Below, piece after piece: positions 7,764-63,707 of a DNA stretch of 64,000 bases. The stretch is taken from assembly GCA_965248755.1 (NCBI GenBank), contig OZ252149.1, positions 3,808,001 to 3,872,000 of the forward strand. Direction: 5' to 3'. The stretch's first letter is position 1. The number at the start of each line of letters is the position of its first letter. The notes beneath the pieces are model-generated. The model was not told the origin of the DNA. It ran no database searches and saw nothing but the letters and a program-made list of their open reading frames with translations. The position numbers were made by a program, and so were the translations under genes. The DNA comes from Candidatus Latescibacterota bacterium (GTDB lineage Bacteria > Latescibacterota > CBDEFO01).

Positions 7764-9242
7764 ATGTTGCAGGCAGCGTTAGACAAGGATCTATCTTCGT
7801 TTGAGAAATGGGGCTTTCCTTTATTGTTTCTTGTGGCAATGTTTGTTGTGGTCGTTGGAATAGCCCTACCTGTTGAAGATGCTCTGGTTGTAGCAGGGGC
7901 GTTATTAGGGGCGTTACTTGTAGTGATTTTACCGATCTATCCACAGATTCTGTTTCCTTTAATGATAATAAGCACAGCCCTGGACTATACCGGGACGTTG
8001 GTAGATACGACCAAGTTGTTAGACGTCTATGAGGTCCCGATAACGGCGTTTCATATCACGGGCGGCGGGGCTTTGTTATTTTCTATGGCTAACGCCTTTC
8101 TGAGAGGTAGAACCCGCCTGCCACGACTTGAAATAAATCTCCCGCTGATATTGTTCTTAGCCGTGGTGGGGATCTCAGTTTCCTATTCCGTGGATAGATT
8201 AGAGGCGGCGGTCGATTTTGTCCGGCTCTTATTCTTGGCCGCTCTGATGTTTGCTACGGTGCTTTTGATCGAGAATAAAAGGGACGTGATATTTGTCACC
8301 GCGTCTGTGATAATCTGTACTGTCGCTGCGTCAGTGTTTGGGATATATCAGGCTCTGACTGAGGAATTTTACCTTCCTGCCCAGGTAGTTCAGTCTTTGG
8401 GAGCGACTGTACCGAGGGCCGCGGCGACGTTTCACAATCCGAACTACTTTGCGGTATTCTTGATGATAGGGCTCGTGCTGTCTACGGCAATATTTGTAAA
8501 TTTCAAGATGTCCCTGTGGAAGAGGGTTGTCCTTCTTTTGGGAATGGTGGCGCTAATGAGTGGGATCGTGATCAGTTTTTCGCGCACCAGTTGGCTGGCA
8601 ACGGTAGTGGGCGTGTGTTCTGTGGTCTTTCTCAGTCGCAAGATCAAGTTTTTATTTGTATTTGTGGGCGTGATTGTAATAATAGTATTATTCATAACCT
8701 TCGTCTCGGAAAATTTTGCAAATCTCGTGATAGGGCGTTTTACGTCTCTCTTTACGATTGTGGATGAGATGGGGTCTTCGGCCAGAGTTTCCAGTAGCGG
8801 CAGGATATATTTTATGATAGGGGCCTGGAGGATGTTTTTGGACAATCCGTTCTTGGGTGTAGGATTCAGATCTTTTCCGGTGCTGTTCGAGAGGGATTAC
8901 AGGTACAGGCCGATAGAGTTTCCGAACTGGTTCCGGGCAAGAGAGTCGCATACTCTGCCTGCGAACCTATTGGCGGAACTGGGAATTGTCGGGTTTACAA
9001 TTGCCGCTTGGCTGATGTTTGCGATTCTAATGGCAGGGATAAGGGGGATCAAAGAGATACAGGACGGATTCCATAAATCCATGCTCATAGGTTATGTCTC
9101 TGTATTCGTGGCTTTCCAGGCCAGCATGTTGTTCACCGCGGATATAAACAATAATTTCCTCTGGATTATGACGGGCATGCTGTTTGCTGTCAAGACGATA
9201 GGCACAGGCAAGACCGTAGCCCCCGATAGAACCCCCAATTGA
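7764..9242 (+). CDS. O-antigen ligase/polymerase family protein (Wzy_C)
   Basis: Multi-TM; FHNPN, SFSR, R..M..GA..MF.DNP.LGVG and H..LAELG motifs. Confidence 0.85.
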   Translation: MLQAALDKDLSSFEKWGFPLLFLVAMFVVVVGIALPVEDALVVAGALLGALLVVILPIYPQILFPLMIISTALDYTGTLVDTTKLLDVYEVPITAFHITGGGALLFSMANAFLRGRTRLPRLEINLPLILFLAVVGISVSYSVDRLEAAVDFVRLLFLAALMFATVLLIENKRDVIFVTASVIICTVAASVFGIYQALTEEFYLPAQVVQSLGATVPRAAATFHNPNYFAVFLMIGLVLSTAIFVNFKMSLWKRVVLLLGMVALMSGIVISFSRTSWLATVVGVCSVVFLSRKIKFLFVFVGVIVIIVLFITFVSENFANLVIGRFTSLFTIVDEMGSSARVSSSGRIYFMIGAWRMFLDNPFLGVGFRSFPVLFERDYRYRPIEFPNWFRARESHTLPANLLAELGIVGFTIAAWLMFAILMAGIRGIKEIQDGFHKSMLIGYVSVFVAFQASMLFTADINNNFLWIMTGMLFAVKTIGTGKTVAPDRTPN

Positions 9243-9261
9243 ATCTTTTGGGGGTCGGGGG
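9220..9261. repeat. 23-bp palindromic element, nested copy
   Basis: cccccgataga-a-[cccccaattgaatcttttggggg]-tcggggg flanked by tag/tag. Confidence 0.8.
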
Positions 9262-9347
9262 TAGACAGCATAGAGGGCATCCCTCTCGCTGGCCGTCTAC
9301 TATTCTTGGATCTCTATAGTGACTTCCAGACTAATTTTATGTGAAGT

Positions 9348-10544
9348 ATGAAGGTCCTTTTGACATCTCATCTGTTTCCGAATAAGTTCAGTACTATTTC
9401 AGGGATATTTGTAAAGGAGGAGGTGAGTTTTCTAAAGGAGTGGTGTGATCTTAAAGTTTTAGCTCCTGTGCCCTGGTTTCCGCCTTTGGGAGGCTTTGGA
9501 AGATGGAGCAGGCTGCGCCAGATCCCGAAAAGGGAGGCGGTGGATGGGATCGAAGTTTCGAGGCCAAGATACTTGACATTTCCGCGCATGATACTGTTTT
9601 GGATCGTAGGCCTCTTCTACTTTATCTCGCTTTTTAAGGAGACAAGGAGGCTGAAGTTCGATCTGATACATGCGCACGTCGCCTACCCGGACGGTTTCGG
9701 CGCTGTCCTGCTCGGTATAGTATTCAAGAGGCCTGTGGTGGTGACAGTTCATGGGAGCGACTTGAAACTCTTTCCAAGAAAATGGTTACTGAAGGGATTG
9801 ATCGGGTGGACGTTGAGAAGGGCGAACTTCGTTATAGCTGTGAGTGAGGATATGAAAAGATTGGCTGAGGCAATGGGTGTGAAAAAAGACAAGGTCGGGG
9901 TGATCTACAACGGGGTGAATACGAAGCTGTTTCGGATATGCGGCAAGGGCGAACGCAAGGTAGAAAACTACAAGGTCAAAAGGATCATATATGTAGGGAG
10001 ATTCGACAGAAGGAAGGGCTTAGGAGTTCTGCTTGCGGCATCGGCTCGTATATTCAAGATGAGGGAGGATGTGGAGTTGGTATTGTTAGGAAGGAACAAG
10101 GAGAGAAAAGACGATGAGGAGTTCCGCGTAATAGCCAAGAATTTGGGGATCGACGATAAGGTAAAATTCGTGGACGCCGTTCCTATAGACCAGGTGCCCT
10201 TATGGCTTTATGGATCAGATCTTATGGTGCTGCCCAGCTTTTCAGAAAGCTTTGGACTCTGTGTGATTGAGGCCCTGGCCTGTGGGAAGCCCGTCGTGTC
10301 AACGAGGTGCGGCGGACCTGAGGAGGTGGTGACGGAGGATGTGGGCATACTGGTGGAACCAAGGGATGTGGAGGGGCTTAAAGACGCTATGTTATACGTG
10401 TTGGATCATCCCCAAGAATATAAAGCTGAGAAAATAGCGCAATATGCAAAAAACAGGTTCGACCTGGAAGTTACGGCACAGAGGGTGCTGGAAGTCTATT
10501 CTTGTGTTCTGGATGCACGGAAGTCTTTCCATCCCGCAAGATAA
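9348..10544 (+). CDS. Glycosyltransferase family 4
   Basis: HGSD, ESFGLCVIEALACG (EX7E). Confidence 0.9.
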   Translation: MKVLLTSHLFPNKFSTISGIFVKEEVSFLKEWCDLKVLAPVPWFPPLGGFGRWSRLRQIPKREAVDGIEVSRPRYLTFPRMILFWIVGLFYFISLFKETRRLKFDLIHAHVAYPDGFGAVLLGIVFKRPVVVTVHGSDLKLFPRKWLLKGLIGWTLRRANFVIAVSEDMKRLAEAMGVKKDKVGVIYNGVNTKLFRICGKGERKVENYKVKRIIYVGRFDRRKGLGVLLAASARIFKMREDVELVLLGRNKERKDDEEFRVIAKNLGIDDKVKFVDAVPIDQVPLWLYGSDLMVLPSFSESFGLCVIEALACGKPVVSTRCGGPEEVVTEDVGILVEPRDVEGLKDAMLYVLDHPQEYKAEKIAQYAKNRFDLEVTAQRVLEVYSCVLDARKSFHPAR

Positions 10545-10580
10545 GTAGGAGGAGAACATCAAAGCGGTCTCTCATCTCTT

Positions 10581-11741
10581 ATGAAAATATGTATCTTGAC
10601 TCTGGGACACAGCCCGTTCGACAGCAGGATTTTCTACAAGGAGGTTTTGTCGCTTGTAAAGGTCTATAAGGATATTACGCTTGCGGTGTGTTGGGGGGAA
10701 GATCGGGCGGTCAAGAAAGAAGATGTACAGGGTGTAAATGTTGTGCAAATGGAAGGGGGCACTGGGTTTTTGGGGAGGATGTCGCGCCTGTGGAGGTTGT
10801 ACAGCTTTGGGAAAAGAGAAAGAGCAGATATGTATCATGTACACGATTTTGAGCTGCTTGCCATAGGATTAGGGCTGAAGGTCTTTGGCAAATGCAGTTT
10901 AATTTACGACGCTCATGAGCATCAGCCTGACAGGATGAGGGACTCTGAAAAGATACCGAGGGGCTTACATTGTCTGTTGGCTTTTCTAGTAGATATTGTG
11001 GAGAGCGCGCTTAGTCGGTTTGCAGATTTTATCATCGCGGCGGACAAGGTTCTATGGAAAAGATACAGGAAATTTAATAGAAATGTCGTCCAAGTGGGGA
11101 ATCTTCCGCGGCTTGAGCTGTTTAGAGAGAATGGGAATGCCCTATCGGACTTGAAGAGCAAGTATGAAGGTTACGAGGTAGTTATATATGTAGGGGCGAT
11201 CCACAGGCCAAGGGGAGCCGTAAAGTTAGTGGAGGCTATAAGAGAGGTTAAGCGGGAAATTGAGAACATAAAGCTTCTGTTCGTGGGGCCACTAAGAGAC
11301 GCTGAGTGCAAAAGGGAAATGGAGAGATTAATCAAGGAGAACGAACTTGATGATAATGTGGAGCTTGCCGGGGTCGTGGATCACACAGAAGTGGCCGATT
11401 ACATAAGGGTGTCGAAGGTGGGAATGGCCACGCTTCTGCCGATCCCCAAGTTCTTTAAGAACGTTCCGACAAAACAGTTTGAGTACGCAGCGTGCGGGAT
11501 TCCGATTGTGGGGAGCAAGCTGCCACCTATCGAGGAGTTCGTGTCCAAGGAAGGTTGTGGAGTCGTGGTGAATCCCACAGAGCCGAAGGAGATCGCAGCT
11601 GCGATCTGTCATCTATTAGAAGATCGCAAAGAGGCTAAAAGGATGGGAGACAGAGGAAGGAAGGCTGTGGAGAAAAGGTATAATTGGGGAAGGATGGAGG
11701 GAAGACTCCTGGATGTATACTCTAAACTGGAGAGAAGATAA
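10581..11741 (+). CDS. Glycosyltransferase family 4
   Basis: D.RIF.KE, YDAHE, PTKQFEYAACG. Confidence 0.9.
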   Translation: MKICILTLGHSPFDSRIFYKEVLSLVKVYKDITLAVCWGEDRAVKKEDVQGVNVVQMEGGTGFLGRMSRLWRLYSFGKRERADMYHVHDFELLAIGLGLKVFGKCSLIYDAHEHQPDRMRDSEKIPRGLHCLLAFLVDIVESALSRFADFIIAADKVLWKRYRKFNRNVVQVGNLPRLELFRENGNALSDLKSKYEGYEVVIYVGAIHRPRGAVKLVEAIREVKREIENIKLLFVGPLRDAECKREMERLIKENELDDNVELAGVVDHTEVADYIRVSKVGMATLLPIPKFFKNVPTKQFEYAACGIPIVGSKLPPIEEFVSKEGCGVVVNPTEPKEIAAAICHLLEDRKEAKRMGDRGRKAVEKRYNWGRMEGRLLDVYSKLERR

Positions 11742-11744
11742 GAT

Positions 11745-13466: not shown

Positions 13467-13657
13467 CAGTAGACGGGCACCGCCTTGCCATAAACTGTCA
13501 TTGAAGAAAAGGGCACCTTGAAAAGTATTGAATAACTTTATAGAAAAAATCCCAGCAATCTATGAGTTTGCTTCGCGTATCATCCCTTTATATGACTCAT
13601 CGCAAGTGCGGACGATTACAGAGGGCCTCGATAGTTAGTAGACTGTGTCAATTGCCA

Positions 13658-13693
13658 CCCCCGCCCCCGATTGAATATATCGGGGTCAATCGG
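13658..13693. repeat. 23-bp palindromic element, nested copy
   Basis: cccccg-[cccccgattgaatatatcgggg]-tcaatcgg. Confidence 0.8.
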
Positions 13694-13777
13694 TCGATGG
13701 AAGAAATCTCTTAAGTGGGCAGCTGACAGGAGATAGTAGACAGAGATTGCAGCTTTTTTCATCTCCCCTATTGTGCT

Positions 13778-15587: not shown

Positions 15588-15674
15588 GGGTTTTCGGAAT
15601 TCTTTAAGAATATGTCTGGAAGGATACTTGAGGATTCTGCAGTTGTAGTGTGAAAAGATCGGTTATCCCTGATC

Positions 15675-15720
15675 TCCCCGACCCCCGATAGAGTCAATCG
15701 GGGGTAGACTCTATCGGGGA
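15675..15720. repeat. 23-bp palindromic element, nested copy
   Basis: tccccga-[cccccgatagagtcaatcggggg]-tagactctatcgggga. Confidence 0.9.
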
Positions 15721-15761
15721 CTGACCTTTCAAATGCGGTTCAATGACCAGGGAGGAGGACT

Positions 15762-18243: not shown

Positions 18244-18344
18244 GAGATCGCTTCCCCCCGATAGATTCAATCGGGGGTCGCTGGCAATGACTATCTGTTT
18301 GAGACCCTTGGTCATTGCCAGGGATGAAATCCTGAAACAATCTC
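18244..18344. repeat. Inverted pair of GAGATTGC...GCAATGAC REP-like units; first unit carries the 23-bp element (18255-18277)
   Basis: gagatcgcttc[cccccgatagattcaatcggggg]tcgctggcaatgac ... gtcattgcc...caatctc. Confidence 0.85.
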
Positions 18345-21532: not shown

Positions 21533-21910
21533 AGTGTAGTTTCATCAGGTTGACGATGGACAGCGTATCAGAAGAATAGTTCACGCAATATTTTTGAACA
21601 TAGAGTGATCTGCGTGGACGGGAAGGAAATTGACTTTAGCATGCAGGTATCGTGTCATAATTGTCCGTACAAGCTTATAGAGATCCAAAATAGTAGAAAG
21701 CTTACAGCGGGGTGAGGAGTCTGTCTACTTGCCCATCTACATAGGTTTCATACTTAATATAACAAAGTATATTCTGTTTTCCAAGCCTCTTCTTTTGAGA
21801 CGTTTGGGTTTTTATAACGTTGCATTTAGCCCGAATAATTCACAAAAAAAGCCCTATATTAATTAAGGGATTGTATTATATTATAGTTATGGCGTTTAAC
21901 CACCTTCGGT

Positions 21911-22032
21911 GTCCTTGCGAGCAGAAGGCGAAGCAATCTCGATTCTGTGGTAGATGTAACACTCTACAACTCTCATAGGAGACCACTATAAAACCTTAGA
22001 GATTGCTTCGTCGCTTTGCTCCTCGCAATGAC
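21911..22032. repeat. Inverted pair of GTCATTGCGAG...AAGCAATCTC REP-like units
   Basis: gtccttgcgag...gaagcaatctc / gagattgcttcg...ctcgcaatgac. Confidence 0.8.
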
Positions 22033-22179
22033 TCCACTAAGTTTATGAATTAATCGGGTTAGTAAGTCAAAGTCCGACATGCTTTATCACAGATTTGTAT
22101 GCTCTTTTATATGCTTTCGGGGAGGCCGATAGATAGTGACAAATAACCGCGTAGTTACACAGAAAGAAAGGAGCAGGAT

Positions 22180-29163: not shown

Positions 29164-29266
29164 GTAGTCGGTAGCCCTGATCCTCGATAAAATCAATCGG
29201 GGACAATCGGGGATTCAATCGCGCATAGACAGGGCACCGTCTCCCATCCCCGCGTGCTGTCTACTA
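29164..29266. repeat. GTAGACAG-family repeat with multiply nested 23-bp elements (29175-29225)
   Basis: gtag[ccctga tcctcgataaaatcaatcgggga caatcgggga ttcaatcgcgca]tagacagggcaccg...ctgtctacta. Confidence 0.85.
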
Positions 29267-29407: not shown

Positions 29408-30427
29408 ATGCCGGTAGAGGTCCTAGTCATAGGTGTCGGCTCTATTGGCGAGCGCCACGTGCGATGCTTCGGGGCCACCGGCCGTGCTGACGTGTCCTTA
29501 TGCGAGATAGACGACGAACTTCGCCAGAGAATCGCCGACCGCTACGGGGTAATGCGGACCTACTCAAATCTCGACTCTGCGCTGGGTGGCGTCTTCGATT
29601 CCCCGATAGGTGCAATGGGGGGCAAGGCGGCTGTTGTGGCCACCCCGGCTCACCTGCACGTGCCTATAGCTGCTCGTCTGGCTGGAGCGGGGTATCATCT
29701 CCTGATCGAAAAGCCGCTGGCCACGAGCCTTGAAGGGGTCGAACAGTTGCGCCAGTTAGTCTTAGAGAAGGGGATCGTTGCGGCCGTAGGATATAACCAC
29801 CGCGCGCACCCGTCGCTTGCGGAGATGAAGCGGGCGGTCGGCAGCGGGCGCTTTGGTGCCCCCGTTCAGATCGTGGTCGTATCAGGTCAAAACTTTCCCA
29901 CGTACCGCCCCGCCTATCGCGAGATCTACTATGCGGATCGGGCCACCGGAGGTGGCGCCATCCAGGATGGGTTGACCCACTTGGTCAATGCCGGTGAATG
30001 GCTGGTCGGTCCGGTGGATCGTGTCGTCGCTGATGCGGCGCACCAGGTGCTGGACGGCGTCGAAGTGGAAGACACCGTCGGTGTCCTAACGCGGCAGGGG
30101 TCGGTGCTGGGCAGTTACAACTACAATCAACATCAGGCCCCCAATGAAACGACCATAACTGTGGTCTGTAGTCAGGGAATCGCCCGCTTCGAGTCGCACC
30201 GACATCGGTGGCGTTGGATGACAGAGCCGGACGCAGGCTGGACTGATGAACCTTGCGACCCGCTGGAACGCGATACACTTTTTATACGTCAGGCCAATGT
30301 TTTTCTTGACGCAGTTGAGATGGGTACCAAGCCTTTGTGCTCGCTCGACGAAGGAATACAGACCCTGAGGGTAAACCTGGCGATCTTGGAGTCAGCGACT
30401 AATGCGTCGAGCCTCAGGGAGCTTTAA
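29408..30427 (+). CDS. Gfo/Idh/MocA family oxidoreductase
   Basis: GVGSIG, EKP, GGGA..D. Confidence 0.85.
   Translation: MPVEVLVIGVGSIGERHVRCFGATGRADVSLCEIDDELRQRIADRYGVMRTYSNLDSALGGVFDSPIGAMGGKAAVVATPAHLHVPIAARLAGAGYHLLIEKPLATSLEGVEQLRQLVLEKGIVAAVGYNHRAHPSLAEMKRAVGSGRFGAPVQIVVVSGQNFPTYRPAYREIYYADRATGGGAIQDGLTHLVNAGEWLVGPVDRVVADAAHQVLDGVEVEDTVGVLTRQGSVLGSYNYNQHQAPNETTITVVCSQGIARFESHRHRWRWMTEPDAGWTDEPCDPLERDTLFIRQANVFLDAVEMGTKPLCSLDEGIQTLRVNLAILESATNASSLREL
29600..29622. repeat. Degenerate 23-bp element inside CDS
   Basis: tccccgataggtgcaatgggggg, translated SPIGAMG. Confidence 0.6.
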
Positions 30428-40172: not shown

Positions 40173-40883
40173 ATGGCAACTCCCTACAGACAATCTATCA
40201 AGGACTGGCCCGAGGATGAACGCCCCAGAGAGAGGCTCATAAAGTACGGAGCGTCTTCGCTTTCTGATGGCCAGATATTAGCTATTATACTCGGGAGCGG
40301 AGATTCGACATCGAATATGAGCGCGGTTGACCTCGCAAGATTCATGCTGAACACGCTCGGGAGCTTCAAGGCTATGGACACGGCGAGCGTATCTGAGCTG
40401 TGTCAAATCAAAGGCGTCGGAACAGCCAAGGCCTCCCAGATAAAGGCGGCTATAGAACTTGGGAAACGTCTCTTTGCCCATCCCGAAGAGTCGCAGATCG
40501 CCTTTATGTCGAGTGAAGACGTAATGCGCATATATCTGCCTGTGCTCAGGAACCTCAAGAAAGAGGTCTTCAAATGCGTGCTTTTAGACGCTAAGAACAA
40601 GTTTTTGAGAGATATCACGATATCCGAAGGGGGATTGACGGGCACTGCAGCGGATCCCCGTGAGATCTTTGGACCTGTTCTGAAGGAGTCGGCTGCGTCT
40701 GTCATATTTGTCCACAATCACCCCTCCGGTGACCCGACTCCCTCACCGCAGGACATCGAAGTGACGGAACGTCTGGTCAAGACTGGAGACATAATGGGCA
40801 TCAGGGTGCTGGATCATATCGTAATCGGGGATGGAAAAGCGGTGAGCTTTGTTGACAGGGGCCTTATGCCGGCCGGAGATTAA
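40173..40883 (+). CDS. radC: RadC family JAB-domain protein
   Basis: ERPRERL, HNHPSGDP.PS..D, LDH. Confidence 0.95.
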   Translation: MATPYRQSIKDWPEDERPRERLIKYGASSLSDGQILAIILGSGDSTSNMSAVDLARFMLNTLGSFKAMDTASVSELCQIKGVGTAKASQIKAAIELGKRLFAHPEESQIAFMSSEDVMRIYLPVLRNLKKEVFKCVLLDAKNKFLRDITISEGGLTGTAADPREIFGPVLKESAASVIFVHNHPSGDPTPSPQDIEVTERLVKTGDIMGIRVLDHIVIGDGKAVSFVDRGLMPAGD

Positions 40884-41773
40884 GATAAGGTCAACGGAGA
40901 TGGATATCTTTGATCAAATAGAGCCAGCAAGCAGATCGGTTCCACTTGCCGACAGGATGCGCCCCAGAAGTCTGGATGAGTTTGTGGGTCAGGGGCATAT
41001 TCTGGGACCGGGCAAGCCTCTAAGAACAATAATAGAGAAGGACCATCCCTATTCCATAGTCTTCTGGGGACCTCCCGGCACGGGGAAGACCACGCTTGCA
41101 AGAATAATTGCATCCACTACGGGCGCCAGGTTTGTAGGCTTCAGCGCGGTAGTCTCAGGTATACAGGAGGCCAAAAAAGTCATAGCCCAAGCGCGTCAGG
41201 AGAGGGAGGCTTACGGTGACAGGAGAACTATCCTCTTTGTGGACGAGATTCACCGTCTAAACAAGGCACAGCAGGACGCTTTTCTGCCTCACGTCGAAGA
41301 CGGCACGATAATGCTCATCGGCGCCACCACGGAAAATCCTTCCTTCGAGATCATCTCGGCGCTTCTATCCAGAACGAGGGTCTTCGTGCTGAACCCCCTC
41401 TCTGAGGAGGAACTCAAAACTGTAGTCCGAAACGCCCTTGGGGACGGGGGAAGGGGGCTCGGGACGATGAACGTCCACATGGGTCCGAAAGCCCTCGATT
41501 GTCTGATAAGCATTGCAAACGGAGACGCAAGGAAAGCCCTCAATACGCTTGAAATTTCCACTTCATCGGTTGAACCTGGCGGAGACGGCGTGCGGCGAGT
41601 CACGTTGGAAGTGGTCGAGGAGGTGGAGCAGAGGAGGATTCCGATCTACGACAAAGGTGGGGAGGAGCACTACAACGTAATCTCCGCCTTTCACAAGAGC
41701 CTGAGAGGCAGCGATCCAGACGCGGCCTTATACTGGCTTGTCCGCATGCTCTCTGCCGGGGAAGACCCTTTAT

Positions 41774-43399
41774 CCCCCATTCGCCATATTAGACCCGAAA
41801 AATGGTTGTCAAAGTCGCCAGAACATGTTATATTACAATAAATAAGACTCATAAATGGCGGATAAATATTGATCATCCAGAGGGTGAAAGAATGAAAGTA
41901 GGTTTTGATGGAGGAATAAAGCTTGAATTTCATGGTGCAAAGGTGACATCAAACGGTGGACTTCTTGCGTATCGTGACCTTGATTACGCACTGGGATTAT
42001 TTGATTCGGTATCAGCGGTTTTTACCGATAAACGCACAGGCCGTAATATCCAACATGATATATCTACTCTCCTGCGTCAATCGATATACAGCCGTCTTGC
42101 AGGATATGAAGATGTAAATGACGCCGAGCGATTATCCGTTGATCCCGTCATGCGAGCGATTACCGGAAAGAAGGACAAAGGCAGGCAAGCTGCCAGCTCC
42201 AACACGATAGGACGTTTTGAAACTGATATACTGACTCAGCATGACAATCTCAGAAACTTGTCAGATATCAATGGCAAGTGGGTTCAAAAAGCGATGAGTA
42301 AAACACAGCATCAACGAATCATTCTGGACATGGACAGTTCGGAGAGTCCGGTACATGGCCAGCAGGAAGGATCAGCTTACAACGGTCATTTCGGATGTAC
42401 CTGTTTTCATCCAGTGTTCTGCTTCAATCAGTTCGGGGATTGTGAAGGAGTCCTACTTCGCTCTGGTAATGTTCACAGTGCTGATCGTTGGAAGGAAGTT
42501 CTGGAACCGATCGTCAAGAGATACGAGAGCAAGAAGAATAGGAAATACTTTCGAGGCGATGCTGCATTCGCAAAGCCTGAGATTTATGATTATCTGGAGG
42601 GAAACGGCTATTTGTATGCCATTCGGTTTCCCGCAAATGAGATACTCTATGAAAAGATACGATACCTGCTGACTCGGCCAGTTGGACGACCGCCGAGGAA
42701 ACCGATTGTATCGTTATATGAATTTCAATATAAAGCGGCCAGTTGGGATCAATCGAGGCGAGTGGTCGCCAAGGTTGAATGGCACCAAGGGGAGTTATTC
42801 CCAAGAGTGGGATTTATCGTGACCAACATGAGCGCCAAGCCAGAAGGCGTGGTACACTTCTACAATGGCCGTGGCAGAGCTGAGCAGTGGATTAAGGAGG
42901 GCAAGTATGCTCTGAACTGGACCCGACTCTCATGCAAGCGTTTCGTCTCCAATCAGGTGAGGCTCTGGCTGTTTGTTCTGGCTTACAACTTGGGCAACTT
43001 CCTGCGACGTTTTGTTCTTCCGAAGAAAATCAAACACTGGTCACTACGCAGCCTCCTCGTGAAATTTATCAAAATCGGAGCGAAGATTGTCAGACACAGC
43101 GGATATATTACGTTTCAAATGGCTGAGGTTGGGATAGACAAGAGGTTATTTGCCGAAATATTATCCCGGATTGAACGATTGCGATGTTATTCTGTTTAAA
43201 CTGCCACATTTTTTTGTGAGTCGATGGAGAGGTGTCTCTAATTGGAGGATTTAAACACAAAGAAAGTGATAATTCAGAGGAAAATACTATTTTAATTGAA
43301 AAAAGTACTTGTTGAAAAATGTAAAAGTGGTAATATTAATTCAGAAACAAGAATGTATCGAAATATAATCCCTCATGAATGTGATATGGGGAATGTCGG
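41774..43399 (+). mobile_element. IS1380-family insertion sequence (1626 bp)
   Basis: IRL cccccattcgccatat; IRR atatggggaatgtcgg; single DDE transposase. Confidence 0.9.
41892..43199 (+). CDS. IS1380-family transposase
   Basis: TS.GGLL, GYED.ND, LDMDSS, RGDAAF, Y..RG.AE.WIKE.K; true start uncertain (41802-41892). Confidence 0.92.
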   Translation: MKVGFDGGIKLEFHGAKVTSNGGLLAYRDLDYALGLFDSVSAVFTDKRTGRNIQHDISTLLRQSIYSRLAGYEDVNDAERLSVDPVMRAITGKKDKGRQAASSNTIGRFETDILTQHDNLRNLSDINGKWVQKAMSKTQHQRIILDMDSSESPVHGQQEGSAYNGHFGCTCFHPVFCFNQFGDCEGVLLRSGNVHSADRWKEVLEPIVKRYESKKNRKYFRGDAAFAKPEIYDYLEGNGYLYAIRFPANEILYEKIRYLLTRPVGRPPRKPIVSLYEFQYKAASWDQSRRVVAKVEWHQGELFPRVGFIVTNMSAKPEGVVHFYNGRGRAEQWIKEGKYALNWTRLSCKRFVSNQVRLWLFVLAYNLGNFLRRFVLPKKIKHWSLRSLLVKFIKIGAKIVRHSGYITFQMAEVGIDKRLFAEILSRIERLRCYSV

Positions 43400-44011
43400 T
43401 TGTACTCTATCTTGAATTTATAAAAACTCAAAAAAGTTTTGGATGTTTTGTCTCTCTCACGTATCTATAATACGACAGTGATATAAATTTCTCATAAAGT
43501 ATTTGTAAAATAGTTGACAAATACTAAATATATGTAAAATAAATAAGATATGTCATCAAAGAAAGCTTGACAAAGCTTGGGAATTGTACTATACGTATAA
43601 CAGTTACTAACATTATCCTGATTAAGCAAAGAACTTGATGACTTCTATGCGGTGTCTTTCACGAATTCTACGTAACAGCTATAGGTAGTCCTAATTTGTT
43701 TGCTGAAAAGATACTGCTATTAACTTAAAGAACTTTCATGCCGGAAGGGGAAATAGTTTCAGGCAAAGGAAAGGAGGGAGCGAAACATCAGAAAAGAGCT
43801 CCTGTATAGCAGTTGATGGCATTGTTCTTGTAAGGAGGTGATGAAACAAAATGAGAGGACGAGCAGTGAAACCTTCCACGGTTCTGGCTACGATAACTTT
43901 CGTTATCTTGGGTATCGCTGCACAAATACACGCCCAGGTGTCCGCCCCAATTATCACTAATTACGTCAGAGCGGTTGCAGTCGAACCCGGAGGGAACGCG
44001 GTCTATGTGGG
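43400..44011 (+). mobile_element. 612-bp passenger DNA co-mobilised with IS1380
   Basis: Lies between the IRR and the second TTTAT target copy (44012-44016); AT-rich promoter-like DNA plus the 5' end of a secreted-protein gene. Confidence 0.8.
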
Positions 44012-44460
44012 TTTATACATTGCAAGGCGTATGGTCCGATTCGCATCAGAGGACGTGGGAAACGCCGACCCGCGCTCTTTGACCATAGCGATAGCCGCCA
44101 AGGACGCCTTTGACTTTCTCGGCTCCCCCGAGGGTGAACTTGCGCTCGCTCAAGCGGCAGTCTACCTTGCCACAGCCCCTAAGAGCAATTCTGTATACTC
44201 CGCATATCAGATGGCCCAGGAAGACGTCCAAAAAAGTCCCTCTTTGCCCGTCCCTCTCCACATTCGCAACGCCCCTACGCAACTTATGAAAGAACTCGGA
44301 TACGGAAAGGGCTACAAATACGCCCACGATTCTGAGGAAAGCTACATAGCTCAGGAATATCTGCCCGACAATCTGGCAGGTGCCAAGTACTACTACCCCA
44401 CAGAACACGGATACGAAAAGAAGATAACGGAAATGATGAAATGGTGGGAGAGCCTTAAGC

Positions 44461-44535
44461 AGTCAGTAGACAGGAGTCAGTAGCCCCCGATTGAATCTAT
44501 CGGGGCTAGACAGGGCACCGCCTACCATCCCCCTT
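44461..44535. repeat. GTAGACAG-family repeat with the 23-bp element (44484-44506)
   Basis: agtcagtagacagg agtcagtag[cccccgattgaatctatcggggc]tagacagggcaccgcc. Confidence 0.9.
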
Positions 44536-44581
44536 TCCTAAGAAGACATCAGTTTTTCCTCTTCAACTTTCGCAGGAAATT

Positions 44582-44630
44582 GTAGGGGCGAGGTCCCCTC
44601 GCGCCAAGGACTGGGTCTCCCAGCCCCTAC
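44582..44630. repeat. GTAGGGGC...GCCCCTAC REP-type doublet
   Basis: gtaggggcgagg...cagcccctac. Confidence 0.75.
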
Positions 44631-44663
44631 GAAACGTTGCTTGGAACAGGAGCACGAGGTAAA

Positions 44664-45722: not shown

Positions 45723-46457
45723 CTACCCTGTCTTTCCGAAGTTGTCCAGAAAGATCACAAAGTCGGACAGTCCGATCTCTCCATTACCATCTAAATCAAA
45801 TTTAGGATCCCAATTAGCCGAATCAGTCGTTGTCCCGAAAGCATCCAAGAAGAGGACAAAATCTGAAAGACCTACTTCCTTGTTCCCGTCAAAATCTCCT
45901 ATAAGCGAAGTGGAAGAAGGCTGGTTGGCCTGCCCTAATGTCGGCTCAGCGACTACCCAGTCTGACGATTGATGGGGGAAGTTCCCATCTCCTACATACT
46001 GAATAGACTGTCCGGTCGGAACACTTGTGGGATCGATCGTATCTGAGGAACTCGCCCATTTGCCGCCGGACACCGCCTCGGACGTCCTCTTAAACAAGGG
46101 AGATCCCCACTTCACGTAATCGAGCACAGAAGAGGGGTTGGAAAAAGAGCCGTCCCGATAGTAAGCCACATCCTGGTTTGACAGGTCCAGCGTTGATGGA
46201 GCGTCGATTACCGCAAATCCCAGAGGAGGTACTACAGTACCGCTGGATATCGACCGATAGCTCTGATTCATACAGAGCCACTGTCCTCCGATGTCAGCGG
46301 AATTATCGGGATCGTCGTTGAAAAACTCTATCTTCTGCGTCCCATCCGAAGATTTAAAGAGCACCTCGTTGATTCTGACGCCCGCATTAAGTTCAGCCAA
46401 AAACGCGAACACAGCCAACACGGTGACAAATACTGACAGCAATCTTTTCATTCTCAT
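45723..46457 (-). CDS. Secreted lamin-tail-like domain protein with C-terminal dockerin/EF-hand-like pair
   Basis: Signal peptide, RINEV, PTLG..N, GDFDGN.EVGLSDF repeats. Confidence 0.7.
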   Translation of the reverse strand: MRMKRLLSVFVTVLAVFAFLAELNAGVRINEVLFKSSDGTQKIEFFNDDPDNSADIGGQWLCMNQSYRSISSGTVVPPLGFAVIDAPSTLDLSNQDVAYYRDGSFSNPSSVLDYVKWGSPLFKRTSEAVSGGKWASSSDTIDPTSVPTGQSIQYVGDGNFPHQSSDWVVAEPTLGQANQPSSTSLIGDFDGNKEVGLSDFVLFLDAFGTTTDSANWDPKFDLDGNGEIGLSDFVIFLDNFGKTG

Positions 46458-54386: not shown

Positions 54387-54483
54387 GTAGACAGTAGTCC
54401 CCGATCGCATCAATCGGGGACTATCGGGGATTCAATCCGGGGTAAACAGGGCATGGCTACCCATCCCTGTATGCTTTCTACTT
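54387..54483. repeat. GTAGACAG-family repeat with multiply nested 23-bp elements (54398-54442)
   Basis: gtag[tccccgatcgcatcaatcgggga ctatcgggga ttcaatccgggg]taaacagggc. Confidence 0.85.
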
Positions 54484-56027: not shown

Positions 56028-56210
56028 ACGTTAAAGTCTATACGTGCATATTCAGGAATTCGCAAACACACAAATCGTTATGCCTCCTGCTGGAATTCAT
56101 TGATAAAAGTAAGATGAATGTCAAACTCCCCTGACTACATTGGAGAAGAAGGGGAACATTGCCAGGGGCAGTTGTTCATAGTGATGATGACTACATTTAG
56201 GAGCTAAATT

Positions 56211-56999: not shown

Positions 57000-57175
57000 G
57001 CCATATGGCGTCCATAATAATTCGCAAAAGCTGAGACGCTGCAGGCGGATGCCTTTGTTGGCGGTCCTAGTTGCCAAGTCATCCGTTGCGTTGTTAGGTG
57101 ACGTAGCAATCCCCCTTGCGACTTAGCTCGGGCCCGTACGACAAATTTCCACAAGAGCTCAGAAAGTATTGAATA

Positions 57176-57211
57176 CAAAGCCCGTCAGACATCAATGACG
57201 GGCTTTGCTTT
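57176..57211. terminator. Intrinsic terminator between convergent genes
   Basis: caaagcccgtca-8-tgacgggctttg perfect stem. Confidence 0.7.
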
Positions 57212-57349
57212 GGTCATTTAAATACTGCTCACTTTAGAAAAGTGGACAATCCCTAAAAAGGCCTGTGGACTGCTCTGTCTACTGGGCAAGGTTAGTTCGC
57301 CCCTACTGTCTTTCCCTTTTCCCTGTCTACTGTTTGCTGCCTACTTATT

Positions 57350-58294: not shown

Positions 58295-58360
58295 ATGAAA
58301 TATCCCTCCCTTTTATCGATTATATTGCTTTGAAATTGGCTATTTCAAAAAAGGCGATTG

Positions 58361-58389
58361 AATATAAGGATTTTGGCGCCTGTTGTCAA
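58361..58389 (-). promoter_or_regulatory. Sigma70-type promoter of the M23 gene
   Basis: TTGACA-17-TATATT on minus strand. Confidence 0.55.
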
Positions 58390-58440
58390 GGGGCAAATTT
58401 CACTTTTTGACAATTCTGCTCTAACTGCCGACAGAACTAG

Positions 58441-58488
58441 TCCTCGATAGAACCCTCCCCGATTGCTTCTATCGAGGAGCAATCGAGA
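58441..58488. repeat. 23-bp palindromic element, nested copy
   Basis: tcctcgatagaacc[ctccccgattgcttctatcgaggag]caatcgaga. Confidence 0.8.
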
Positions 58489-58489
58489 T

Positions 58490-59467
58490 TCACCGACAGG
58501 ATTCTCGTAGGAGGGCCTCTGAAGCTTCGTAAGGATCGATTTTCCGTTCCGCCGTCTGATCTACGAGATTCTGGAGTCTTTCTTGATTCTGAGTGTCGTG
58601 TAATATCTGCGCTTTTATCCTGTCTTCGACCATCCTTACGATTTCAAACTCCATCTGCTTTCGCCGCTTTAAGGTCAAAAGTCCGTTGTTCTCTAAATAC
58701 AATCTGTGAGCGGATATACTCTTATAGAGTTTTTCTATTCCGCTCCCATTTACTGCCTCTGTGAGACACAAGGGGGGCATCCATTCTCCCATATTGGGAT
58801 TCGATTCCAACGCCGACTTTAACTCCGACGCAAGCTTCCCTGATCCGTCTCTATCGGCTTTGTTCACCACAAATATGTCAGCTATTTCCATAAGGCCTGC
58901 TTTCATGATCTGAACAGAATCCCCCGACTCCGGAACCAACACCAGGACAGCGGTATCTGCGCTTTCAGCGATGTCCAACTCCTGCTGTCCCACGCCTACA
59001 GTCTCCACTATAACGTAGTCCATACCCATAGCGTCCAGGATCCTTATTCCATCTCTTGTGGCCCTTGAAAGTCCTCCGGAGCTCTGACGGCTGCCCATGC
59101 TCCGTATGAAAACTCCCGGATCCAGATAGTGCCGCTGCATCCTAATCCTGTCTCCAAGCAGAGCACCTCCGCTGAATGGACTCGTAGCATCTACGGCGAT
59201 TATTCCTACCGTCTCTTCCTCATCCCCGATTGAATCTATCGGGGACCTAATTTCCTGGGTAAGAGCATCTACCAGCGTACTCTTGCCCGCTCCCGGAGGT
59301 CCCGTAATCCCGATCGTGTAAGCCTTTCCCGTATGGGGATAGATACTCTTCATATATTCTATAAAGTCGGGATGCCCATTTTCCGCTAAACTGATAAGGC
59401 GCGCTGCCGCACTCTTATCTCCTGAAAGGAGTCTTTTTACAAGCTTCATGAGACGATCTGCATCCAT
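58490..59467 (-). CDS. meaB: Methylmalonyl-CoA mutase-associated GTPase MeaB
   Basis: GPPGAGKST, SPFSGGALLGDRIRM, ETVGVGQ, NKAD. Confidence 0.93.
   Translation of the reverse strand: MDADRLMKLVKRLLSGDKSAAARLISLAENGHPDFIEYMKSIYPHTGKAYTIGITGPPGAGKSTLVDALTQEIRSPIDSIGDEEETVGIIAVDATSPFSGGALLGDRIRMQRHYLDPGVFIRSMGSRQSSGGLSRATRDGIRILDAMGMDYVIVETVGVGQQELDIAESADTAVLVLVPESGDSVQIMKAGLMEIADIFVVNKADRDGSGKLASELKSALESNPNMGEWMPPLCLTEAVNGSGIEKLYKSISAHRLYLENNGLLTLKRRKQMEFEIVRMVEDRIKAQILHDTQNQERLQNLVDQTAERKIDPYEASEALLRESCR
59223..59245. repeat. Consensus 23-bp element inside meaB CDS
   Basis: tccccgattgaatctatcgggga; translated SPIDSIG on the coding strand. Confidence 0.92.
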
Positions 59468-59871
59468 TACGAGAGGACATTTCTGATATACTCTATGATC
59501 TGGCCCGTATGCGTTCCGGGACTCCATATCTCCGCAACGCCCTCCTCTTTTAGGGCCTCCCTGTCCTCGGGCAGTATCGTCCCGCCCCCTATTACCAGGA
59601 TGTCGTCAGCTTGCCTTTCTTTCAAAAGAGACAATACCCTTGGGAAGATAGTCATATGAGCACCCGAAAGGACGCTTATTCCGATAATGTCCACGTCCTC
59701 CTGTATAGCGCTCTCTACGACTTCCTCCGCCGTCCGATGCAGCCCCGTATAGATGACCTCCATACCCGCATCTCTCAGAGCCCTTGCGACGACTTTCACT
59801 CCTCTGTCGTGCCCGTCCAGGCCAACCTTGGCCAGGAGTATCCTTATTCTTCTGTCTCTAGCGTCCTCCAT
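59467..59871 (-). CDS. Cobalamin-binding subunit of acyl-CoA mutase
   Basis: [18 protein letters not shown]. Confidence 0.92.
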
Positions 59872-59981
59872 CCTCACCGGCTTCATCTCTTTCTTGGTAG
59901 TTCTCCCTTGGGTAGTTCTCTCTTGCAGAAGTGCACTATCTTCAAGCTTGTTTCGCTGACCCTTGGCTTCACGCTGAGCTT

Positions 59982-60092
59982 CCCTGATCCCCGATAGATT
60001 CAATCGCGCACTCGCAACGACGGTTTATATGTGTCTTTTAGTACTTCACCGGCCTTCAGTCATTGCGGCGGGTAAAACCCCGAGGCAATCTC
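59982..60092. repeat. GCAATGAC-family repeat pair with the 23-bp element (59988-60010)
   Basis: ccctga tccccgatagattcaatcgcgca ctcgcaacgac ... gtcattgcgg...gcaatctc. Confidence 0.8.
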
Positions 60093-60120
60093 ATCTGTCT
60101 GATGACTACTGGCTACTTAT

Positions 60121-60588
60121 TTAGTTCTTCGATGATAAATCAGATACCTTTGGCTCGACTGACCTTTCAAAATCCTTGTACGACAACCGGATCAATTCGG
60201 TGTGGGAACCTGCGTTAAAGGCAACCTCCTCGTCTTCGGCCAGACTCTCCGCCACAAAGACTTCCATTCCGTAAAGATTTCCAAATGGTGGCATAGCACC
60301 GACTTGGCACTCTGGAAACATGTGTTCGAAGTCTTGTTCCGTGGCAACATCAACTGTTTTCGCTCCGGCAGGTTGCTTTAACCGGTCCACATCGACCCTA
60401 AGGGACGCTGCTAAGACCGCCTGTGCCATTTTGCCATCATCTTAACCATAAACTACCTTGGCCAACTCCTTTCCCGGAATGTGAGCGGATGCTGCAATCT
60501 CCATAGCGGTGTAGGCTTCAGAGTGACTGGTGGTCACGTATTTTATTGCATTGCTGTCCAGAAACTCTCGTAATTTGCGTACGGGCAT
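60121..60588 (-). pseudogene. YbaK/aminoacyl-tRNA deacylase family, 1-bp frameshift near 60440
   Basis: [11 protein letters not shown]...[11 protein letters not shown] in one frame; DGKMAQAV...GAMPPFG...FNAGSH in another. Confidence 0.75.
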
Positions 60589-60706
60589 GATTATGTGCTC
60601 CTTCTAGCTCAACTCTCCACCAGACACTTTCACTCATAAGAGGGGAGTCTGCTATAGTACTCGACGACGTTGCTCATGATAATCTTAAGTTTCTACAGCT
60701 AAATTA

Positions 60707-60890
60707 GGTAGACAGGGGCACATCCTCTCTTCACGCTGTGTTCTCGTAGGGGCAGACCCGCGTGTCTGCCCTCTAGATACGGATAAATCGGGCGAACACA
60801 TGGGTTCACCCCTACATATGCCTGCTGAAAGGGCGAGTGGACCCCCGATTCAACCTTTCGGGGGCAGGCCTCGCCCCTACATTCTATCTA
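60707..60890. repeat. GTAG-type REP cluster; one unit carries the 23-bp element (60842-60864)
   Basis: gtaggggcagac...gtctgccct; gggcgaac...cccctac; gggcgag..[cccccgattcaacctttcggggg]..ctcgcccctac. Confidence 0.8.
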
Positions 60891-60899
60891 CTCGTTTGG

Positions 60900-61763
60900 T
60901 TACCAGAGTTCAAGGCTCATCAATTCCTCACCGAAGATGATTTCGCCCCCGTAGATACGTGCGATATCTCCTATGCCCCTTTCTCTTGAGCCCGGGGCTG
61001 CAAGATGTGGTCCAGTGTGCGCGAGGATCAGTTTCTTGGCACCTGACTCCTCCGCCAATTTAGCCGCATCGAGGGTCCCTGTCTGACCTGGTGCTTCCCC
61101 GTTTTCCTCCATTGTCTCCTGGTGATCCCAACAGTTGGCTATAAGGACATCAGCGCCGCGGGCCAGCTTACTTACCGACTCGCAGGGGCCTGTATCGCTG
61201 GCAAAGACGATACAGCCTTCATCTGTATCGACTCGGTAGGCGAGTGATTCGAGCCAGGGCTCAAAATGGTGGGCGTGCGCGGCACTTACCCTCCAACTAT
61301 CATGCTCCATCACTCTTCCAGGACCCACATCGCTAACGTCCAAAGCAGGCTCAGGGCGCGGCAACGAGCCGCCGCGATTTACATGTACTCTCTGGCTGCC
61401 TGGTGCTCCCACACGCGCCTTCCAATCGTGGGAGAACGCTCCATCTGTCCCGATGATGCGCTCGGTGATCCACTCGGTAGGAGGAGGTCCCAAGACCTGT
61501 AACCTATTTTCTTTACCTGTGCTTTGGTCCCAACGGCACAGCAGGAAGCATGGATAATCGGAATTATGGTCAAAGTGGTGATGGGTAAAAAAGAGATAAT
61601 CTATCTGTGTCGGGAACAGACCCGCTTTAACGAGCTTATATGTGGCGGCTGGACCACAATCGAACATCAGATAGTCATCCTCTAACTGCAGGACAAATGA
61701 GGTCCCAAACCGCGACTTTGTGGGAGTTGGAGTGCCTGTACCAAGTAAATACAGTTTTCTCAT
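60900..61763 (-). CDS. MBL-fold metallohydrolase (RNase Z-like)
   Basis: LGTG.P, DCG, THHHFDH, SDT. Confidence 0.85.
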   Translation of the reverse strand: MRKLYLLGTGTPTPTKSRFGTSFVLQLEDDYLMFDCGPAATYKLVKAGLFPTQIDYLFFTHHHFDHNSDYPCFLLCRWDQSTGKENRLQVLGPPPTEWITERIIGTDGAFSHDWKARVGAPGSQRVHVNRGGSLPRPEPALDVSDVGPGRVMEHDSWRVSAAHAHHFEPWLESLAYRVDTDEGCIVFASDTGPCESVSKLARGADVLIANCWDHQETMEENGEAPGQTGTLDAAKLAEESGAKKLILAHTGPHLAAPGSRERGIGDIARIYGGEIIFGEELMSLELW

Positions 61764-62800
61764 CTTACCTTTCCTCTCGCTTCGACCTTCCATATGACTT
61801 CGACCTTGCCGTTCCTGACGGCTACCACCTCATCGTGCAGATTTGTAGTCATCCCCTGATGAGTCGGTATCACAGAGAGCCTTTCGCCCACTTTAAACCT
61901 GTTAGAGCACTTGCTTGTGTTCAGGTGCCCGTGCTCCACAGACATAGCGTATATTTCAAGCTCAGGATACTCCATCACATAGCCGTAAGGCGTGGGAGGA
62001 TAACTTGTGAAGGTCTTCTCTCCGCCGTCAATTATGATCCTGTCGGGAGCCGGAGTGCTCACCACCGTTACGATCATACGCATAGCACACGTTTCCGGGT
62101 TCAGTGTGCCGTGTCCCACCCTTGTCATCCCTTCAAAGGCGTAGGAACCCATGCGGGTCTCTGTGCAGCCTATCTCCTTGGACACTGCCTCTGTTCCCGT
62201 TCCGCCTCCGCTGATGATGTTGACAGGGATATTCTCAGCCTCTAAAAGCTCCACAGTCCTTCTTATAAACGTTTCAGCTTCGATTGTGCTCGGATAGGTC
62301 ATAATGCCCTGGAAATCGAGGCCGGGCATCTTGACGATCCTCTTTGCGAGTTTTAAAGCCGCCTCAGGAGACTGAACGCCGCACCTCTTTCCTCCCGTGT
62401 CTAATTCGATGATGACTCGGACTTTGCAGTTGTCCATTTGTGCCTGTCTTGAAATACCCAGGGACGCATCCTCCGAGTCCACAGCCACAGTTACAATAGC
62501 CCTTCGTAACAATCTTGTCAATCGCTCCAATTTCCCTTTTCCCACGATATTGTAGGGGATTAAAATGTCCCTGATCCCAGTGGCGCACATAACCTCAGCC
62601 TCACCCAACTTTTGGCAGACTATGCCTATCGCCCCAGCCTCCAACTGCATGTGTGCGATCTCGGGGATCTTATGAGTCTTTATGTGGGCTCTCAAATTGA
62701 TGTCGTGTTTGCGGCAGGAGTCCGCTGCATTTCTTATGTTCTTTTCTAGAATAGCCAGATCCACAGTCAAGGCAGGGGTGTCCAGATCATCTACGGTCAT
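61760..62800 (-). CDS. PLP-dependent D-threonine aldolase / DSD1-like enzyme
   Basis: LDTP, R.H.KTHK, RCGV, SGGGT, EHG. Confidence 0.85.
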   Translation of the reverse strand: MTVDDLDTPALTVDLAILEKNIRNAADSCRKHDINLRAHIKTHKIPEIAHMQLEAGAIGIVCQKLGEAEVMCATGIRDILIPYNIVGKGKLERLTRLLRRAIVTVAVDSEDASLGISRQAQMDNCKVRVIIELDTGGKRCGVQSPEAALKLAKRIVKMPGLDFQGIMTYPSTIEAETFIRRTVELLEAENIPVNIISGGGTGTEAVSKEIGCTETRMGSYAFEGMTRVGHGTLNPETCAMRMIVTVVSTPAPDRIIIDGGEKTFTSYPPTPYGYVMEYPELEIYAMSVEHGHLNTSKCSNRFKVGERLSVIPTHQGMTTNLHDEVVAVRNGKVEVIWKVEARGKVR

Positions 62801-62818
62801 TGAGTTCTCCTGTTCTAT

Positions 62819-63559
62819 CTACATGTAGACTACTGTCTCGATTCCAATGGAAATCGAACGGAAAACGGCTTTCAGGTCATTTTCGTCGAGTGTTACATAT
62901 ATCCGATGGGGAAGGCGGTCCCTCGCAGGAGGATAAAAAGACAAGGATTCCCAGAACGAATTCTTTATTAACCGGCTTATATCCACCATCCTATCGATCA
63001 ATTGGAGCGTGGGCTTTGTCGCCTCTAACGGTGTAGTGCCGTCAGATCTTACGTAGACCTTCAGTTCGCGATCGAAGCAGAGGATATATGAACTCGGTGT
63101 TTGCACTATGGAGGACTCGACTTTCAAGTCCTGAAGAGCCGAACTTAATGTATCCGCGTCCAGTTCTTCCAAGATCTGTTCTGGAGCAGCACCGACCTCT
63201 TTGCCTTGTAATATGAAAAGCCGCTCGGTTGGTAGTTCTGCGCCCTCTTGTAACCTGCTTTCAACCTGCACGGATAGGGCGACCCATTCGATGAGGACGG
63301 CACCTCGCAGCTTTAATTTCAATTTCTCAGATAGAGTGTCAATTACTAGATAGGGCGACCCTGACGAAGCCAATTCTAACTCTGACTCTAAGAGCCTGCT
63401 CCTTTTTTCCAGTGACAGCTTCTGTCTTTCAAGAGATCTGTAGACTTTCCTTAGACTGTATATGTCCTCCCTGTATCGCTTCAAATTCACATCCGATATA
63501 AATAACAAAACGGAAGCGATCAAAACTGAGCCTACAACCCATTTAAGAGGCGCTGACAT
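62819..63559 (-). CDS. Membrane-anchored hypothetical protein (degenerate L,D-transpeptidase-like fold possible)
   Basis: TM + coiled coil, YLVID..., C-terminal IG..VY pattern; no catalytic H/C motif. Confidence 0.5.
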   Translation of the reverse strand: MSAPLKWVVGSVLIASVLLFISDVNLKRYREDIYSLRKVYRSLERQKLSLEKRSRLLESELELASSGSPYLVIDTLSEKLKLKLRGAVLIEWVALSVQVESRLQEGAELPTERLFILQGKEVGAAPEQILEELDADTLSSALQDLKVESSIVQTPSSYILCFDRELKVYVRSDGTTPLEATKPTLQLIDRMVDISRLIKNSFWESLSFYPPARDRLPHRIYVTLDENDLKAVFRSISIGIETVVYM

Positions 63560-63566
63560 TTTATCA

Positions 63567-63707
63567 GTAGACAGTAGTTAGTATACAGGAGCACGGCCTC
63601 CCCTCTTCCGAGATTACTTTGGGGCTAAAGCCCCTCGCAATGACACCGAGGATTAGAAAACGGTCACTGCGGTCCTCGATTGACCTATCGGGGAAGCGAG
63701 GGAATCT
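63567..63707. repeat. Composite repeat cluster with a 22-bp element variant (63673-63694)
   Basis: gtagacagtag..; gagattac...ctcgcaatgac; gtcactgcgg[tcctcgattgacctatcgggga]agcgagggaatct. Confidence 0.75.

Follow-up and report, generated by a model that had tools for sequence, protein, structure and literature searches.

A 23-base hairpin that recurs through a 64,000-nucleotide stretch of a Candidatus Latescibacterota genome (contig OZ252149.1, positions 3,808,001 to 3,872,000; referred to below as the window) is, we conclude with high confidence, a mobile insertion element. A preliminary description of the window had listed the motif YCCCCGAT-AGATTCA-ATCGGGGR at 13 loci and had read it as a non-autonomous unit near the minimum possible size that is moved in trans. 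All 13 sites exist, two of them as divergent forms, and the reading is supported by both orthologous and paralogous empty sites of known polarity. For these purposes the source genome (G000), which is complete at 4.54 Mb, was compared with that of a sister species (G001), the only other genome of the same genus.

The hairpin and its distribution

The consensus of the G000 copies is YCCCCGATAGANTCAATCGGGGR, with the loop AGANTCA. Scanning of loop lengths from 0 to 15 revealed 237 exact copies and 200 copies with one mismatch at a loop length of 7, and no more than 16 exact copies at any other length. When up to three mismatches over the 20 fixed bases were accepted, the total in G000 was 554 copies; a Markov control sequence of 1.5 Mb contained no match to the 23-mer. 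Within the window, 11 of the 13 listed sites fit CCCCGAT-N7-ATCGGGG with two or fewer mismatches, where 0.23 would be expected by chance, and of the remaining two, 9232-9254 has three mismatches and 63673-63694 has a loop of 6 nt. On either strand the predicted fold is an 8-bp stem of -7 to -8 kcal/mol, an imperfect hairpin that keeps a conserved A.A / T.T mismatch. Its terminal pair covaries, being T-A in 195 and C-G in 126 of the 407 distinct contexts found among 437 copies, and stem position 5 shows a compensatory change from G-C to A-T or T-A in 28 copies. The compensatory changes and the covariation of the terminal pair speak in favor of a stem structure that is under selection or templating. 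The two end types, T..A and C..G, are fixed, and the target is not their source. Copies mostly stand alone (480 of 554 are singlets), with ten inverted pairs less than 200 bp apart. A 19-bp relative with a 3-nt loop, CCCCCGATTAAATCGGGGG, is present in 20 near-exact copies across G000; one self-insertion of this relative also swapped four bases (+15, a single case).

Outside G000, 210 exact copies were found in G001, whereas 39 further genomes from the phylum had none. A looser pattern gave no more than four copies in any of 149 genomes from the rest of the phylum, as compared with 291 and 328 in the G000/G001 pair. Among the matches listed, the identical 21-mer also occurs in metagenome-assembled genomes (MAGs) of Deltaproteobacteria / Thermodesulfobacteriota, and 15 of the 121 genomes around one deltaproteobacterial MAG (G041) bear the 23-mer element. 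Viral contigs gave no exact match to the 23-mer. An exact 23-mer was also seen on a 3.5-kb contig (L217) of a Nanoarchaeia-labelled MAG, which may be misbinned.

With respect to genes, 394 of the 554 copies in G000 lie outside open reading frame (ORF) calls and 77 lie in ORF interiors, which span 73% of the genome. The two reading frames of the element that contain a stop account for 2 and 0 of these 77 copies, and the peptides added by in-frame copies are 7-9 residues long (for example SPIDSIG, SPIESIG, PDRFNRG and PRLNLSG). Since the usual outcome of insertion, a net gain of 19 bp, is a frameshift, the coding copies represent rare survivors.

Empty sites and the junction rule

Orthologous sites were compared over 2.8 of the approximately 4.6 Mb of G001. 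Flanks were mapped for 249 G000 and 264 G001 copies, of which 166 were unplaceable and 215 placements were common to orthologous sites. The empty orthologous sites that the preliminary description had proposed to look for were present in G001, and the dominant outcome was the loss of three to five target bases. Specifically, the clean empty alleles showed four bases replaced in 23 instances, three in 8 and five in 8, and four bases gained in another 8. When these were counted as 47 non-redundant events, 23 replaced four bases, 14 replaced three or five, and 9 gained three or four. We also conducted an unbiased census of indels in 2.03 Mb of aligned G000/G001 sequence (94.3% identity). The element accounted for about 30% of the indels of 15-30 bp (65 of 220); it was present in 23 of 30 indels with a net length of 19 bp, 11 of 19 at 27 bp, 4 of 14 at 20 bp and 0 of 5 at 23 bp. 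In the same census, 9 of 42 net-12-bp indels were collapses of nested copies or slippage products.

In three multicopy hosts the polarity is fixed as insertion. The first is an IS3-type orfB gene, in which 56 copies have an empty TCGT site and 15 are filled, the insert bringing a stop and a frameshift. In the second, a multicopy element of G001, a TCGA site is empty in 78 copies and filled in one. The third is a dispersed repeat of approximately 240 bp resembling a miniature inverted-repeat transposable element (MITE), with a TCGA site that is empty in 22 copies; its filled copies are C..G-ended, and since TCGA gave way here to a C..G-ended copy, the ends come from the donor. The 15 filled IS3 copies and many of the MITE copies each trace to single events. 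Many copies are passengers of single events, so that the number of independent insertions is lower than 554.

The element also inserts into itself. Exactly four bases were replaced in 44 nested fits, at the stem-loop junction CCCCGA^TAGA/TTGA, while every other class had at most two fits (zero bases replaced: 2 fits). Non-self targets had a central CG (NCGN) in 6 of 11 cases (p=2e-6). TCGA is not over-represented in G000 (observed-to-expected ratio 0.93) and is thus no HIP1-like target. A compensated variant with CCCCAAT/ATTGGGG arms, seen for example at window position 9232, forms the inner copy of a nest in 15 of 28 cases versus 39 of 526, a 14-fold enrichment that may reflect resistance to the 12-bp slippage collapse.

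The minority outcome, a net gain of 27 bp, is reached by two routes: four bases are duplicated, or the insert has a CCTG/CTTG tag. Exact 4-bp duplications were found for TTGA (C1:2601095), TTCA (L029) and TGGA (C1:1305629), and 4-bp direct flanks were observed 15 times against 2.3 expected. As for the tag, CAGG/CAAG follows 29 of 54 stems in which the right arm has T or C for its first A, versus 22 of 500 others; a single host repeat accounts for approximately 9 of those 29.

These data changed the interpretation of individual junctions. TAG direct repeats beside window copies had been described as a target duplication, and they proved to be the period of a host repeat, (GTAGACA)n. Paralogue alignments alone do not separate a TAG duplication from a 4-base replacement. 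In the orthologous events that were resolved (3 of 3), the empty alleles read TAG-ACAG/GCAG/CTAG-TAG with four bases replaced, and the duplication was rejected; the G001 empty allele at 44484 likewise reads TAG-NNAG-TAG. The duplication-free insertion proposed at 15682 is likely a collapsed nest, since G001 has an additional 12-bp layer there and 12-bp collapses are common, so that the left and right remnants likely come from different nested layers.

Copies and neighboring features in the window

The proposal that the hairpin interrupts three unrelated host repeats, its own copies and two coding sequences was borne out. In (GTAGACA)n hosts, a nested pair occupies 9220..9261, where the outer copy (9220-9231 and 9255-9261) is split by the compensated inner copy at 9232-9254 (CCCCAAT/TTTGGGG arms), which took the place of TCAA; G001 has the outer copy alone, a net difference of +19. 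The same type of host holds nested, partly duplicated copies at 29175..29223, with the intact one at 29181-29203, as well as a multi-layer nest at 54398..54443, with an intact copy at 54398-54420 and an allele 13 nt longer in both G001 and a public run from another study (X6). A further copy in such a host, on the minus strand at 44484..44506, lies downstream of a split rarA/mgsA gene, and the empty allele in G001 reads ..TGACAG TAGACAGGGC. The gene is divided by an IS1380 transposase (41802-43199) into an AAA part (40849-41841) and an MgsA_C part (43851-44483), and is uninterrupted in G001. In the G001 allele of window 44476-44645 (L005:6900-8260), the (GTAGACA)n cluster bears a transposase-like element of about 1.3 kb.

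CGTC-type hosts include the repeat GAGATTGCTTC..GCAATGAC, which carries a perfect C..G copy in its loop (18255..18277, plus strand); this copy swapped out about 3-4 bases, and G001 is without the entire host repeat. Another CGTC-type host, upstream of a gene for a B12-binding domain, contains a plus-strand copy at 59988-60010 together with an outer remnant (59982..60010). The third type of host, GTAGGGGCGAGGT, holds a minus-strand tagged 27-mer at 60842..60868 (CCTG plus hairpin, with a mismatch beside the tag), inserted at GG^T with no base lost. Genome-wide, this host was found with 17 empty GGT sites, 7 tagless copies in place of GGT and 2 clean tagged insertions.

Both coding insertions are in frame and common to G001. 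A perfect T..A copy (59223..59245, minus strand; SPIDSIG) lies within the MeaB GTPase gene at 58490-59527 and corresponds to a 7-residue gap against two PDB homologues, and a worn copy (29600..29622, plus strand; SPIGAMG) lies within a Gfo/Idh/MocA oxidoreductase gene at 29408-30427, where it adds about 8 residues relative to three PDB homologues. The remaining sites are a nested copy at 13658..13696 (inner one 13664-13685), common to G001; a multi-layer nest at 15666..15720, with an intact copy at 15682-15704, which is 12 bp shorter (collapsed) than the G001 allele; a worn nest at 58441..58490 with an intact copy at 58456-58478; and a worn minus-strand copy at 63673..63694, where G001 shows a nested insertion at the same place.

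The window also contains an empty copy of the 240-bp repeat (21825..22065), which carries the 23-mer elsewhere at two sites (TCGT and TCGA). This repeat, whose ends resemble TTAGCCCGA/TCGGGTTAG and whose interior holds CGTC-type hairpins, occurs in dozens of copies in G000 and G001. A coding repeat of approximately 180 bp at 45723-45905, which we take to be a C-terminal domain of EF-hand or dockerin appearance, has more than 20 paralogues in G001 and gave no Pfam match at 1e-8. An Rfam scan of the window matched a tRNA only.

The candidate mover and related repeat families

We consider a dedicated, trans-acting hairpin nuclease to be the somewhat favored mover, and doubt that it is specifically of the Ssn type. 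The full statement, in which a trans-acting nuclease that recognises hairpins (most likely an Ssn GIY-YIG enzyme) pastes the hairpin as single-stranded DNA and host repair seals it, is tentative and falls a little short of probable. According to this proposal, a small nuclease directed at hairpins and provided in trans would act on the single-stranded form of the element. The target would be nicked twice, about 4 nt apart, and the order of the nicks would lead to loss (+19) or to duplication or a carried 4-nt tag (+27), after which host repair would finish the paste and seal the junctions. The element would descend from the stem of a CGTC/Ssn repeat by way of a CCTG/CTTG-tagged 27-mer that became the free 23-mer, and the mover would be a transient cassette since lost from G000. 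The preliminary description had guessed at either an HUH/RAYT enzyme or a hairpin-targeting activity. The latter stays plausible because self-insertions strike one fixed stem-loop junction, while the former is improbable, as set out below.

An origin of the 23-mer from Ssn/CGTC stems is reasonably supported, and would make the Ssn-type enzymes that such repeats flank candidates for the mover. At a foreign locus (L366), a GTCA-tagged repeat has the exact 23-mer for its stem, and this repeat fits the published pattern for Ssn-related motifs (SRMs) only if the spacer is relaxed to 7. Among 36 Ssn-like loci, taken from 41 listed matches, two are flanked by stems with 2-4 mismatches to the 21-mer. 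At one of these (L424), hairpins with 2 and 4 mismatches from the 23-mer flank a GIY-YIG Ssn-like gene, and at the other (L397) the hairpins have 4-6 mismatches. SsnA recognises such hairpins in single-stranded DNA and cuts a few nucleotides beside them, and its cutting requires three bases upstream of the palindrome, according to PMC11893778. G001 has an intact Ssn-like gene cassette; the orthologous locus in G000 is without it, with N-terminal remnants only. Remnants consisting of one CGTC hairpin and the first ~20 Ssn codons lie on C1 of G000 at 1272044, 2714210, 2979138, 3547835 and 3031453; this combination is multi-copy and lies inside a repeated element. Unrelated micro-hairpins tagged with CCTG/CTTG were seen in the loops of Ssn repeats beside an Ssn-like gene at L424:45-260 and at L260, which suggests a wider family.

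Several observations weigh against this account. Only two of the 36 Ssn loci have a hairpin of the 23-mer type, and these are near-identical tagged stems; the free 23-mer was not found beside an Ssn GIY-YIG gene. Of 1108 stem sides in G000, 2 are preceded by GTCA, so that the free 23-mer is without the GTC tag that SsnA needs, and in PMC11893778 cutting by SsnA is demonstrated and joining is not. The Ssn gene of G001 is flanked by hairpins different from the 23-mer, and an intact Ssn gene was found neither in the complete G000 nor in five incomplete element-bearing Deltaproteobacteria MAGs. Among the 121 relatives of G041, which are incomplete MAGs, Ssn occurs in 4 of 15 carriers and 29 of 106 non-carriers (p=1), and 147 foreign element-bearing loci gave one partial Ssn match. 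Moreover, hairpin context at non-self targets is only mildly above background (41% versus 28%, n=27), and replication-strand bias is absent in G000 (294 versus 260, p=0.16). None of the 554 copies lies in a match to the SRM pattern as published, with its loop spacer of 0-5, in a strict parse that also missed the repeats flanking the Ssn gene of L235.

The main rival reading is that no dedicated enzyme is involved. Template switching during replication or single-strand annealing at forks, using a 2-base microhomology (YC..GR), could place the hairpin, with conversion and hitchhiking on IS3 and MITE copies to follow. We regard this as unlikely, although a search of the Y1_Tnp, GIY-YIG, IS110, reverse transcriptase and four-helix-bundle families gave no candidate enzyme common to the carriers tested, and the Ssn co-occurrence is null. 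Stand-alone GIY-YIG genes number none in G000 and one in G001. Among seven genomes, IS110 is absent from G000 and present once each in G001 and G042, and four-helix-bundle genes occur in five, but G001 has none and those of G000 are interrupted by stops. Two reverse transcriptases were found in G000 and none in G001, so they are not common to carriers; the two, both of defence types, are a retron St85-like enzyme (apparently truncated) with its effector (L238:1387-3273) and a DRT-like enzyme (L239:775-2298). The agreement of NCGN targets with the element ends, the frequency of slippage products and the descent of the IS3 and many MITE copies from single events also fit an enzyme-free route. 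However, C..G ends replace TCGA, TCTA, ACAG and GCTT without homology and the 4-base rule is still kept, the asymmetric loop is letter-identical across phyla, and the expansion occurred in one genus only of the phylum sample.

It is improbable that an HUH transposase (RAYT or IS200-IS605 TnpA), since lost, moved the hairpin as a REP/REPIN-like unit. The imperfect hairpin with its conserved mismatch, the 4-nt tagged form and the GTAG-type host repeats are all in keeping with such an enzyme. Insertion by HUH enzymes normally leaves the target bases complete, however, and neither G000 nor G001 has a match to PF01797 (Y1_Tnp); the copies are predominantly singlets with few close inverted pairs, as opposed to REPIN doublets, and have no GTAG tag of their own. 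It is less probable still that a resident DDE transposase (IS3, IS1380 or IS5-like) mobilises the element as a minimal MITE. Clean 4-bp duplications, the excess of 4-bp flanks and the many IS copies would agree with this, but 37 of the 47 events lose three to five target bases and only some of the 9 gains are exact duplications, the element disrupts an IS3 gene instead of resembling IS3 ends, and two ends bound by transposase would not fit within 8-bp arms and a 7-nt loop. Finally, a fixed functional site (a terminator or protein-binding site) would suit a stable hairpin lying mostly outside ORFs, yet this and an assembly or adapter artefact, both of which the preliminary description had itself raised, have a negligible probability: a U-tract follows only 20 of 554 copies, orientation to transcription is unbiased (111 versus 102), copies lie in frame within genes, and presence differs between the sister genomes, while an independently assembled genome shares 215 placements and public-run unitigs carry the window copies unchanged. 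The public-run contigs and shared orthologous sites exclude the adapter artefact, and the empty sites, the indel census and the polarised hosts rule out a fixed site or an artefact as a general account.

CGTC REPs (Di Nocera 2013, PMC3733652) and the NTS and SRMs associated with Ssn (Chenal 2025, PMC11893778) share with the 23-mer an 8-bp stem starting with A/T pairs; in-frame intragenic copies of CGTC REPs are also known (PMC3733652). Near-identical stems flank the Ssn-like genes at L424 and L397. The 23-mer differs from these in having no GTC tag and no CCA tail, a 7-nt loop against a published maximum of 5, and singlets in place of head-to-head dimers, and in that fresh insertions with 4-base replacement are demonstrated. 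REPINs, likewise short, extragenic, imperfect palindromes with non-autonomous, lineage-restricted expansion, are described by Bertels and Rainey (2011, PMC3116915) as moving in doublets with a linked RAYT, whereas the 23-mer moves as singlets with a Y1 transposase in 0 of 2 genomes. Rickettsia palindromic elements (RPEs), as described in PMC3733652, also add peptides to unrelated proteins by in-frame insertion; RPE-1 is far longer, and the 23-mer adds only 7-9 residues. The 23-mer resembles CGTC/SRM repeats, REPINs and MITEs, yet is a member of none, and a literature search that did not extend to supplements found no published description of it.

The statement that known elements are typically much longer overlooks the cyanobacterial small dispersed repeats (SDRs), which are 21-27 nt in size. 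By description, not by sequence, these appear to be the closest known elements (for example SDR5), reportedly described in Nostoc and relatives by Elhai et al. in 2008. The defining traits of SDRs, namely a length below 30 nt, a hairpin with compensatory changes, dispersal and empty sites in relatives, are all found in the 23-mer. The likeness extends to a gene-less hairpin of 20-odd bases, mobile singlets, a preference for CG-containing targets and no known mover. According to PMC4390886, insertion of SDR5 is precise and falls between two bases of HIP1. The 23-mer, by comparison, mostly replaces 3-5 bases, uses targets of several types and inserts into its own copies, and it occurs in Ca. Latescibacterota and Deltaproteobacteria; precise insertion was seen for the tagged 27-mer only, the five net-23-bp indels including no 23-mer.

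A broader possibility, which we consider speculative, is that hairpin micro-elements of 19-27 bases cut loose from Ssn repeats hijack GIY-YIG nucleases and spread by nick-and-paste across phyla. If true, this would be a chemistry distinct from the DDE, HUH and recombinase routes, and would explain the multiplication of CGTC-type REPs in the absence of a transposase. Dozens of clean before-and-after pairs, a sharp and unusual rule (replace four or gain four), a defined site for self-insertion and a cross-phylum twin supply an exact predicted product for candidate enzymes. For its hosts, the element is one that inactivates transposases and inserts loops of 7-9 residues into enzymes.

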